DNA of 64,000 nucleotides from Candidatus Woesearchaeota archaeon (GCA_019322805.1 JAHWIC010000002.1:2938-66937); one strand, 5' to 3'; counted from the first letter of the stretch, positions 33,650-35,285 are shown. The notes: generated by a model from the sequence alone, not told the origin. Program-made: numbers and translations.

Positions 33650-35285
33650 ATTCCCGTTGATCCTGCGGGAGATTGCTGCTATTGGGATTCGATTAAGCCA
33701 TGCAAGTTTGCTCTCTTCGGAGGGCAGCTGACTGCTCAGTAACACGTCGATAACCTACCCTTAGGTTAGGGATAACCTCGGGAAACTGGGGCTAATACCT
33801 AATAGAGGAATTATACTGGAATGTTTTTTCCTTGAAAGGCAACGCCTAAGGATGGGATGGCGGCGGATTAGGTTGTTGGTGGGGTAATGGTAAGCGAAGC
33901 GGTATTAAGCTTCGCTTAATACAAGCCCACCAAGCCGAAGATCCGTAGGAGCCATGAGAGTGGTAGCTCCGAGAAGGGCACTGAGATACTGGCCCTAGCC
34001 CTACGGGGTGCAGCAGGCGCGAAACCTCTACAATGCACGAAAGTGTGATAGGGGGATCCCAAGTGCTCATGCTTTGCATGGGCTTTTGCCAAGAGTAAGT
34101 ATCTTGGCGAATAAGTGGTGGGTAAGACTGGTGCCAGCCGCCGCGGTAATACCAGCGCCACAAGTGGCAATCGTATTTATTTGGCCTAAAGCGTCCGTAG
34201 CCGGTCTGGTAAATCTTTTGTGAAATTGTTAGGCTTAACCTAACAACGCGCAGAAGAGACTGCCAGACTTGGGACCAGAGAGGGGTTGGAAGTATTTCTG
34301 GGGGAGCGGTAAAATGTTATAATCCCAGAAAGACTACCTGTGGCAAAAGCGTCCAACCAGAATGGATCCGACGGTGAGGGTCGAAAGCTAGGGGAGCGAT
34401 CCGGATTAGATACGAGAAACTATGTCTAATTTTTGGAATTAACTTGTAAATCGTTCATCAAAGACTATTACGAGTTAAGGAAGGAGATTGCTATATGATG
34501 GTTTACTCGCTAACTACCCGAGTAGTCCTAGCTGTAAACTCTGCGAGCTAGGTGTTGCGTATTCTTCGTGAATACGTGGTGTCGAAGCGAAGGTGTTAAG
34601 CTCGCCGCCTGGGAAGTATGGTCGCAAGACTGAAACTTAAAGGAATTGGCGGGGGAGCACTACAAGGGGTGCGGCGTGCGGTTTAATCTAATTCAACGCA
34701 GAGAACCTCACCAGAAGCGACGGCAGGATGAAGGTCAGATTAAAGGTTTTACCTGACAAGCCGAGAGGTAGTGCATGGCCGTCGTCAGCTCGTGCCGTAT
34801 CTGTTAATTGCGTAAGCAATTATGGCGGTTTAGGTGTCCTGTTAAGTCAGGCAACGAGCGAGACCTGTATCTATAATTGCTAACGAGTCTTTCGATGATC
34901 GAGCACATTATAGAGACTGCCTTTGAAAAAAGGAGGAAGGTGCAGGCAACGATAGGTCTGTATGCTCCGAATCTTCTGGGCTACACGCGCGCAACAATGG
35001 TAAGGACAATGGGATACAACTCCGAAAGGAGAAGTTAATCCTCGAAACCTTATCCAAGTCCAGATCGAGGGCTGCAATTCGCCCTCGTGACGTTGGAATC
35101 CCTAGTAATCAGGGTTCATCATACCCTGGTGAATATGTCCCTGCTCCTTGCACACACCGCCCGTCAAACCACCCGAGTAGGGCTTAGATGAGATTTGATT
35201 TTTAATTAACTCGAATCTAAGCTCAGCGAGGAGGGTTAAGTCGTCACAAGGTAGCCGTAGGGGAACCTGCGGCTGGATCACCTCC
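33650..35285 (+). rRNA. 16S rRNA (with an intron and small hairpin expansions)
   Basis: 5' ATTCCCGTTGATCCTGCGGGAG. 3' GGATCACCTCC. Universal motifs CAGCCGCCGCGGTAATAC, GGATTAGATAC and GTCGTCACAAGGTAGCCGTA are present. Length is 1636 nt including a ~114-nt insert. Confidence 0.95.
34404..34517 (+). other. Intron/intervening sequence in 16S rRNA at the universally conserved 785 region
   Basis: GGATTAGATAC|gagaaactatgtct...cgctaacta|CCCGAGTAGTCC. The insert is AT-rich and splits the universal GGATTAGATACCC motif. The exact boundary is ambiguous by 1-2 nt. Confidence 0.7.

Follow-up and report, generated by a model that had tools for sequence, protein, structure and literature searches.

A probable bulge-helix-bulge intron within the 16S rRNA 790 loop of a Woesearchaeota-like archaeon

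Introns of the bulge-helix-bulge (BHB) type interrupt the 16S ribosomal RNA (rRNA) genes of Thermoproteales, Desulfurococcales and Aigarchaeota at 13 catalogued loci (374, 548, 722, 781, 803, 901, 908, 919, 978, 1093, 1205, 1213 and 1391), and hairpin-only BHB introns of less than 50 nucleotides (nt) are also known in Thermoproteales (Jay & Inskeep 2015, PMC4496867). Here we describe elements of this known kind, at sites off the published Thermoproteales list, in a 64,000-nt stretch of archaeal DNA (JAHWIC010000002.1:2938-66937; hereafter the window, meaning the whole stretch). A 104-nt insert in its 16S gene, which we call SSU-2, is very probably an archaeal BHB intron that is spliced by endonuclease and lacks a homing endonuclease gene, and five small inserts in the 16S and 23S genes, together with two introns of the spacer tRNA-Ala, would be handled by the same pathway. 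The operon thus probably holds eight such introns: three in 16S, three in 23S and two in tRNA-Ala (Table 1).

The resemblance to the introns catalogued in PMC4496867 extends to several properties. In both sets a BHB core lies at the junction, and three forms occur: introns that encode LAGLIDADG proteins, remnants lacking an open reading frame (ORF) and hairpins of less than 50 nt. Both sets hit highly conserved loops, break universal primer sites and can place several introns in one gene. Two of the catalogued loci are shared by relatives of the window, one of which (operon L057) is occupied at 908/909 and another (L024) at 1092/1093; E. coli numbering throughout is our own count from the E. 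coli sequence, with 793/794 anchored on primer 785F. The window's own 16S sites, 265/266, 793/794 and 1079/1080, fall outside the 13 loci, and unlike the thermophilic crenarchaeal hosts of that catalogue, the host here appears to be a mesophile-like, AT-rich DPANN archaeon. We considered whether 793/794, the site of SSU-2, is the Thermoproteales locus 781 and rejected this identity. Locus 781 breaks only primer Ab779F and locus 803 only Ab789F/806R (PMC4496867), whereas an intron at 793/794 would interrupt all three primers, and the site is therefore distinct from both. In the searchable literature we found no description of the 793/794 intron family or of rRNA mini-introns in DPANN archaea. 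The same host group, Woesearchaeota/Pacearchaeota, is treated by Nawrocki et al. (PMC6125680), and relatives of the window do have 23S group I introns beside BHB introns; that paper, in the portion available, catalogues group I introns and presents BHB introns as figure boxes without sites or structures.

SSU-2 lies in the universal GGATTAGATACCC loop, the hairpin loop of helix 24 or ‘790 loop’. This loop is universally conserved, and 104 extra bases are unlikely to be tolerated in it; its conservation is visible in the consensus and the consensus-structure (CS) line of the Rfam small-subunit (SSU) model. The archaeal SSU model aligns 105 nt of the gene to one consensus position in GGAUUAGAUA(C)CCGAGUAG, that is, within GGAUUAGAUA/CCC, which leaves a net insert of 104 nt. 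An earlier note on this DNA, made from the sequence alone, had reported an AT-rich insert of ~114 nt at 34404-34517 that splits a universal 16S motif. The interruption is real, being placed by the model and found at the same site in relatives, and it is AT-rich (32.7% GC, compared with 49% over the entire gene and 51% in its exons), but the reported length was 10 nt too long and the range takes in 8-10 exon bases. The model match to the gene is full-length and spans 1637 nt rather than the reported 1636, and removal of the three introns in silico leaves 1466 nt. A direct repeat of UAC at both junctions allows four equivalent registers that give the same product, and the intron coordinates in Table 1 follow the register chosen by the BHB.

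In that register the exon sequence UUAG pairs at all four positions with CUAA near the 3′ end of the intron, and this exon-intron central helix (H) is bounded by two 3-nt bulges on opposite strands. Both flanking helices are present: an exon-exon helix (h) on the outer side and an intron-intron helix (h′) on the inner side. The h′ helix begins at once with four contiguous pairs between CGAG (34413-34416) and CUCG (34506-34509), and the minimum free energy (MFE) structure extends it to ~11 base pairs (bp). In the canonical geometry of transfer RNA (tRNA) introns each cut falls between bulge positions 2 and 3. Joining the exons in silico gives GGAUUAGAU+ACCCGAGUAGUCC (GGAUUAGAU+ACCCGAG), the same sequence as in the three intron-less relatives L021, L050 and L073. 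Scanning the operon for BHB motifs under loose criteria (four of four pairs in H, three or more of four in both h and h′) returned 6856 hits, or ~6e-4 of candidate pairs on a denominator of ~1.2e7 pairs that is our own estimate; as a discovery tool the scan is useless and was discarded, and we kept it only as a chance rate. Given the four registers, the chance of finding the SSU-2 motif is of the order of 0.2%. Because the loose-scan rate is this low and the same site is occupied in at least 92 distinct sequences, an insert with a BHB at this position is not due to chance.

The size and content of SSU-2 bear on whether it could splice itself. Two relatives, L057 and L073, do have 23S group I introns (RF00028), and group I introns in Woesearchaeota have been reported by Nawrocki et al. 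2018 (PMC6125680). A catalytic core does not fit in 104 nt, however, and RF00028 gives no match to the insert either at its gathering score or at E ≤ 10, so that SSU-2 is almost certainly neither a group I nor a group II self-splicing intron. The insert gave no match to any Rfam family at gathering score or in the E ≤ 10 search. As a separate candidate we considered an intron-encoded C/D box small RNA and rejected it: the sole C/D family hit lies on the opposite strand (12.6 bits, E = 9), and by our reading the AUGAUG-like and CUGA strings that resemble C/D boxes are the paired strands of h′, which covary with their partners.

The 793/794 site was compared across ten relatives’ loci, of which nine cover the 790 loop. 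It is occupied in six of these operons (L067, L024, L008, L072, L057 and L011), with inserts that measure, in ascending order, 82, 105, 130, 133, 140 and 152 nt, and empty in the three named above; the element is thus optional, present or absent at one site among related genomes. We also scanned metagenome contigs with the pattern CTAANNACCCNNGTAGTCC, which comprises the H 3′ strand, two bulge bases and exon 2, and obtained at least 120 matching stretches. Together the window, the genome loci and the matches listed yield at least 92 distinct introns at the identical site, ranging from 21 to 750 nt; the counts that follow for this family are among the matches listed. An h′ helix with at least four contiguous pairs is found in 86 of 92 introns, compared with ~11% for mismatched combinations of 5′ and 3′ ends from different introns. 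When 76 junction cores are aligned without gaps, pairing is seen in 89% of cells and the covariation score is 0.571, against 0.139 in shuffles; none of 500 shuffles reaches 0.571, and sliding the partners lowers the score to 0.09-0.19. At the first four positions of h′ pairing reaches 95-100%, with every Watson-Crick type represented. The central helix is invariant in the 76 cores, in part since the search pattern fixed CUAA.

The long members of this family carry coding sequence. Nine of the eleven introns of 641-750 nt have an uninterrupted reading frame of 199-264 codons, and the two frames that were scanned with Pfam both match LAGLIDADG_3 (PF14528; E = 2e-10 and 9e-15). Because the long introns hold LAGLIDADG-matching frames, 793/794 is, as judged from these matches, a homing site. 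The window intron, at 104 nt, has no ORF, as the earlier note had remarked in finding no homing endonuclease, and is in our reading a derivative or relative, without an endonuclease gene, of the mobile family at this exact site. Among the matches listed, its closest counterparts, five introns with 79-84% identity, come from independent contigs of other samples. These contigs speak directly to the idea that the insert is an assembly artefact or chimera. Although rRNA operons are hard to assemble, and L001 breaks within its 23S gene, the recovery of such similar introns from independent assemblies and of at least 91 further distinct introns at the same site leaves this explanation with next to no credibility. 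At the other end of the size range, the four shortest of the 793/794 introns listed measure 21-30 nt and consist of little beyond one bulge base, a 5-bp hairpin, CUAA and two bulge bases.

The main rival to a spliced intron is that the insert is an expansion segment which mature 16S rRNA retains, a reading that would also take in the small hairpins. The small inserts are indeed simple hairpins within hairpin loops, as expansions often are. SSU-2, by contrast, sits within an invariant functional loop and not in a variable region; it is absent from three related operons, and the family conserves its junction structure while its interior varies from 21 to 750 nt. Also at odds with a retained segment are the LAGLIDADG-matching frames in the long members and the finding that 22 of 26 inserts (see below) have the central helix of a BHB. 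Because the loop is invariant and the element optional, retention is unlikely, and we consider it very unlikely indeed on the evidence as a whole. The BHB-type intron proposed by the earlier note thus finds backing in the register that restores the universal sequence, in presence and absence among relatives, in a covarying flanking helix and in the LAGLIDADG frames of long introns at the same site.

The spacer between the 16S and 23S genes provides an example of the same kind of site in a tRNA. The unspliced tRNA-Ala gene is missed by both ARAGORN and Rfam, and in silico removal of its two introns yields a 72-nt tRNA-Ala(UGC) that ARAGORN finds, with G3-U70 in the drawn acceptor stem. Because this tRNA becomes canonical only after removal of both introns, the organism, judged by its gene sequence, must possess a BHB splicing system. 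The position of the second intron, 59/60, is like that of the non-canonical tRNA introns cut by (αβ)2 and ε2 endonucleases (PMC5829648), and the relaxed motifs of several rRNA mini-introns, such as a 3 × 1 internal loop or a 2-nt bulge, are what such broad-specificity endonucleases accept (PMC5829648).

We propose that in the precursor rRNA exon UUAG would pair with intron CUAA to form the 4-bp central helix between the two 3-nt bulges, that the tRNA-splicing endonuclease would cut in both bulges, and that an RtcB-type ligase would join the exons and so restore GGAUUAGAUACCC. The excised intron would probably be circularised by the ligase, and the five inserts of 32-45 nt and the two tRNA-Ala introns would be substrates of the same pathway. 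Excision of the rRNA introns is inferred. One variant of this scheme keeps the cleavage and drops the ligation: the insert would be an intervening sequence (IVS) cut out to leave a fragmented 16S rRNA, like the RNase III-processed IVS of bacteria. The DNA sequence alone is compatible with BHB cleavage lacking ligation, and an ORF of family PF05635 lies just 3′ of the 23S gene, probably by coincidence. The cut sites, though, restore the universal sequence to the base, a functional tRNA-Ala requires ligation at the same kind of site, and in archaea ligation normally follows cleavage at a BHB (Jay & Inskeep 2015, PMC4496867); an unligated IVS is accordingly rated highly improbable.

The five small inserts share the BHB geometry with SSU-2. 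Alignment of the 16S and 23S genes with the Rfam SSU and large-subunit (LSU) models, a check that the earlier note had itself suggested, placed each insert it mentions as a model insertion. The 16S hairpins stand where it had located them (TAAGCGAAGC at 33891-33900 with GCTTCGCTTA at 33909-33918, and TAATTGC at 34805-34811 with GCAATTA at 34816-34822), as do the 23S hairpins near 38190-38245, whose arms are at 38198-38214 and 38220-38235. Its description of the ~30-nt hairpins as expansions was not supported: each can form the central helix of a BHB in the register whose splicing would give back the intron-less sequence, and the five inserts of 32-45 nt are most likely mini-introns of BHB type, as judged from these pairings. 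In all five, exon positions −6 to −3 pair with intron positions n−5 to n−2 (4/4 bp in four and 3/4 in one), the exact spliced product of each being defined by intron-less relatives.

SSU-1 is the insert with three pairs, GUA(A):(A)UAC, with bulges UG/G and AA/G, an h′ of 10 bp and an h that is 4/4 over four positions and 6 bp in all; it is absent from all nine relatives. In SSU-3 the central helix is GCCG:CGGU (4/4) and a GUAA tetraloop remains after removal, and L057 has a different hairpin at this site with GCCG:CGGC. LSU-A has UGCG:CGCA (4/4) and, in the window, a weak h′; the 35-nt intron of L024 at this site forms a better one. For LSU-B (GUUC:GGAC) the MFE structure itself draws the BHB, and the central helix covaries among relatives as GUUC:GGAC, GUUC:GAAC, GCUC:GAGC and GCUC:GAGU. 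The central helix of LSU-C, GCAG:CUGU (4/4), is also in the MFE structure, in a relaxed BHB with a 2-nt bulge 2, and L072 has a 33-nt single-hairpin intron there with the same H. The hairpins of same-site inserts in relatives are unrelated, and the central helix is kept or compensated. Pooling the small and mid-size rRNA inserts of the window with those of its relatives gives 26, seven of them 790-loop introns; in 22 of these all four central-helix pairs form in the restoring register, where the chance rate is ~2% per register.

Several observations weigh against the BHB-intron reading, and the motif is not perfectly canonical. At SSU-2 an A34405·C34517 mismatch abuts bulge 2, h has only three Watson-Crick pairs, and the MFE z-score of the local fold (−1.4 to −1.7) does not stand out. 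Several mini-introns have a weak h′ or h (LSU-A, LSU-C) or one unpaired base facing bulge 1. Neither an EndA endonuclease nor an RtcB ligase gene was found among 40 Pfam-scanned ORFs of the 64-kb window. In a separate analysis the flanks of the 16S and 23S genes were cofolded in search of processing-stem BHBs; a long 23S stem formed, and no clear BHB was seen in either set of flanks.

Many mid-size introns at 793/794 contain a further feature, a hairpin loop with a segment A (segA), an A-rich spacer and a segment B (segB) in that order. The 6-8 nt of segA are complementary to exon-1 positions ~−18 to −11, the 5′ strand of helix 24; the spacer is 2-13 nt long and 65% A; and segB, (A/U)CU(A/G)C, has its complement in the GUAG(U) of exon 2. 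Both segments are found in the window intron, in its hairpin P3 (Table 1). In the intron of L151, which is 84% identical to that of the window, AUUGUUC faces GAGCAAU, a compensatory change of G to A in the exon and C to U in the intron. Over the family segA follows the exon variant: GCGAUC occurs with GAUCGC or AUCGU, GCAAUC with GAUUGC, GCAAAC with GUUUGC, GCAAAA with UUUUGC and GCGAAC with GUUCGC. Exon-intron covariation was tested by an alignment-free permutation, as a MAFFT alignment of 23 full-length members left the loop segment out of register, and the test covers segA, the exon-2 partner of segB having been fixed by the search pattern. The exact complement of the host’s own variable exon tetramer, followed by G[CU], is present in 25 of 64 introns against 7.5 ± 2.4 with permuted labels (0 of 5000 permutations reach 25), and in 17 of 30 clusters at 70% identity. 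Gap-free duplex scores are higher with the host’s own exon variant than with the others (Wilcoxon p = 4e-5), and in 29 of 65 introns the true variant scores best among the eight. The whole module is found in 32% of introns of 60-129 nt, in 59% of those of 130-260 nt and in none below 60 nt, compared with ~4% when the wrong exon variant is used.

These results make it possible, at somewhat less than even likelihood, that mid-size introns (~80-230 nt) hold an intron-encoded exon-binding guide or folding chaperone that clamps both exon strands of helix 24. The loop would grip both strands just below the weak 3-bp outer helix and so stabilise the substrate. When the introns are folded alone, the exon-complementary segment is 53% unpaired against 41% overall, which lends weak support to its being unpaired. 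At other sites the loci compared offer at most nine mid-size introns each, too few for an exon-complement test. The arrangement is like the internal guide sequence of group I introns and the exon-binding-site/intron-binding-site (EBS-IBS) pairings of group II introns in that intron segments pair and covary with both exon flanks. It is unlike them in that the exon partners stand off from the splice sites, by 11-18 nt on the upstream and 7-11 nt on the downstream side, and that a catalytic core is absent; the likeness is one of resemblance only, the pairing itself being deduced from covariation. Searches of the literature returned no description of an exon-complementary loop for Thermoproteales-type introns, nor of an exon-binding guide in any protein-spliced intron.

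One subfamily also contains an internal mimic of exon UUAG. The sequence GGARUUAGC, found in 15 of 65 introns and in 0.1% of controls, is the exact complement of the intron’s own last 7 nt, that is, of the central-helix 3′ strand and two bulge bases. It sits ~25 nt into the intron in L151, six other named introns and others, and is degenerate in the window (34437-34443). In this subfamily the mimic would pair, in place of the exon, with the intron’s own 3′ end, an arrangement that may point to a second, closed fold or to a step in product release. LSU-C has an arrangement of its own, in which the second hairpin, CAGUAAC/GUUACUG (38220-38235), takes up CUG of the central-helix 3′ strand. We regard this hairpin as a putative internal competitor of exon pairing that resembles the alternative pairing in the 16S intron.

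The operon stands upstream of a Kae1 gene (39142-40119, directly 3′ of the operon) in the window and likewise in all ten retrieved relatives. This gene is 91% identical to that of a metagenome-assembled genome labelled Candidatus Woesearchaeota, and the next-closest relatives carry the labels Woesearchaeota, Nanoarchaeota or Pacearchaeota; because of these labels the host is taken, from its Kae1 sequence, to be a DPANN archaeon (Woesearchaeota-like). The GC content of the window is 38%, and a 5S rRNA gene was not detected at the Rfam gathering score across positions 1-64000. The PF05635 ORF mentioned above (‘23S rRNA-intervening sequence protein’; 139 amino acids, 38726-39145, + strand, E = 1.6e-32) begins 135 nt 3′ of the 23S gene and so lies beside it, not within it. 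The family name reflects members encoded within bacterial 23S intervening sequences.

The relatives’ rRNA genes show three further differences. Relative to every other relative, L011 is ~110 nt short in its 16S gene (~3252-3440, corresponding to window 34572-34680), which may reflect a deletion, a misassembly or an alignment problem. Inserts of 290-700 nt occur at a single 23S site (window equivalent ~37564) in L057 (6365-6615), L073 (6509-6735), L011, L010 and L024, and Rfam RF00028 calls a group I intron in those of L057 and L073; the window is empty at this site. Inserts of ~800 nt lie near the 16S 3′ end in L024 (~2617-3418) and L057 (~3214-4005), equivalent to window ~35159, and the group I model gives no call on them at the Rfam gathering score. 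They may correspond to the SSU/1498 introns that Nawrocki et al. describe, or else be endonuclease-encoding introns of BHB type.

Table 1. Coordinates of the rRNA operon, its inserts and the structural elements of SSU-2 in the window (a slash within a bulge marks the predicted cut; model inserts are given as nt against consensus positions of the Rfam model)
Feature	Position	Strand	Details
tRNA-Gly	32487-32560		First gene in operon order tRNA-Gly, 16S, tRNA-Ala, 23S
16S rRNA gene	33650-35286	+	1637 nt; Rfam RF01959, 1397 bits, full-length match
SSU-1	33890-33924	+	Most likely 35-nt hairpin mini-intron; helix 11 loop, E. coli 265/266; model insert 36 nt vs 1
SSU-2	34412-34515	+	Probable BHB intron, 104 nt; E. 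coli U793/A794
Outer helix h, 5′ strand CGG	34402-34404	+	Pairs with CCG 34518-34520; native upper stem of helix 24
Central helix H, 5′ strand (exon UUAG)	34406-34409	+	Pairs with intron CUAA 34510-34513; 4/4
Bulge 1, AU/A	34410-34412	+	5′ cut inferred at 34411/34412 in the BHB register
Helix h′, 5′ strand CGAGAAACUAU	34413-34423	+	Pairs with ~34498-34509; RNAfold MFE
Hairpin P3 (CUUGUAA:UUACGAG)	34443-34474	+	In MFE; coordinates partly our reading
segA, AUCGUUC	34450-34456	+	Complementary to exon-1 GAGCGAU 34394-34400; putative pairing
segB, ACUAU	34464-34468	+	Complementary to exon-2 GUAGU 34522-34526; putative pairing
H 3′ strand CUAA and bulge 2, CU/A	34510-34513 and 34514-34516	+	3′ splice site between 34515 and 34516
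SSU-3	34800-34831	+	Most likely 32-nt hairpin mini-intron; E. coli 1079/1080; model insert 34 nt vs 2
tRNA-Ala(UGC)	35317-35450	+	16S-23S spacer; two 31-nt BHB introns
tRNA-Ala intron at 37/38	35353-35383	+	31 nt, canonical BHB motif
tRNA-Ala intron at 59/60	35406-35436	+	31 nt, canonical BHB motif
23S rRNA gene	35561-38591	+	3031 nt; Rfam RF02540, 2583 bits, full length
LSU-A	36705-36742	+	Most likely 38-nt mini-intron; model insert 41 nt vs 3; not in the earlier note
LSU-B	38102-38136	+	Most likely 35-nt mini-intron; model insert 37 nt vs 2; not in the earlier note
LSU-C	38194-38238	+	45-nt two-hairpin insert, most likely a mini-intron; model insert 47 nt vs 2

The 793/794 intron has practical consequences for surveys of these archaea. 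It splits the binding sites of 785F and 806R, a loss of primer sites that had been anticipated from the sequence, and DNA-based V4 and V3-V4 amplicon surveys miss its carriers, which are numerous, as the count of matching metagenome stretches attests. Automated 16S callers and tRNA finders mis-annotate such operons. With probably eight endonuclease-dependent introns in one operon of a reduced-genome DPANN archaeon, intron-rich rRNA would not be confined to Thermoproteales. The 793/794 site hosts introns with LAGLIDADG-matching frames, mid-size introns and hairpin-only introns, and is thus a good system for the decay of mobile introns, in which the introns of 21-30 nt would be useful minimal substrates. 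If functional, the exon-complementary loop would add RNA-RNA recognition to a class of introns taken to rely solely on a protein for recognition of the BHB shape.

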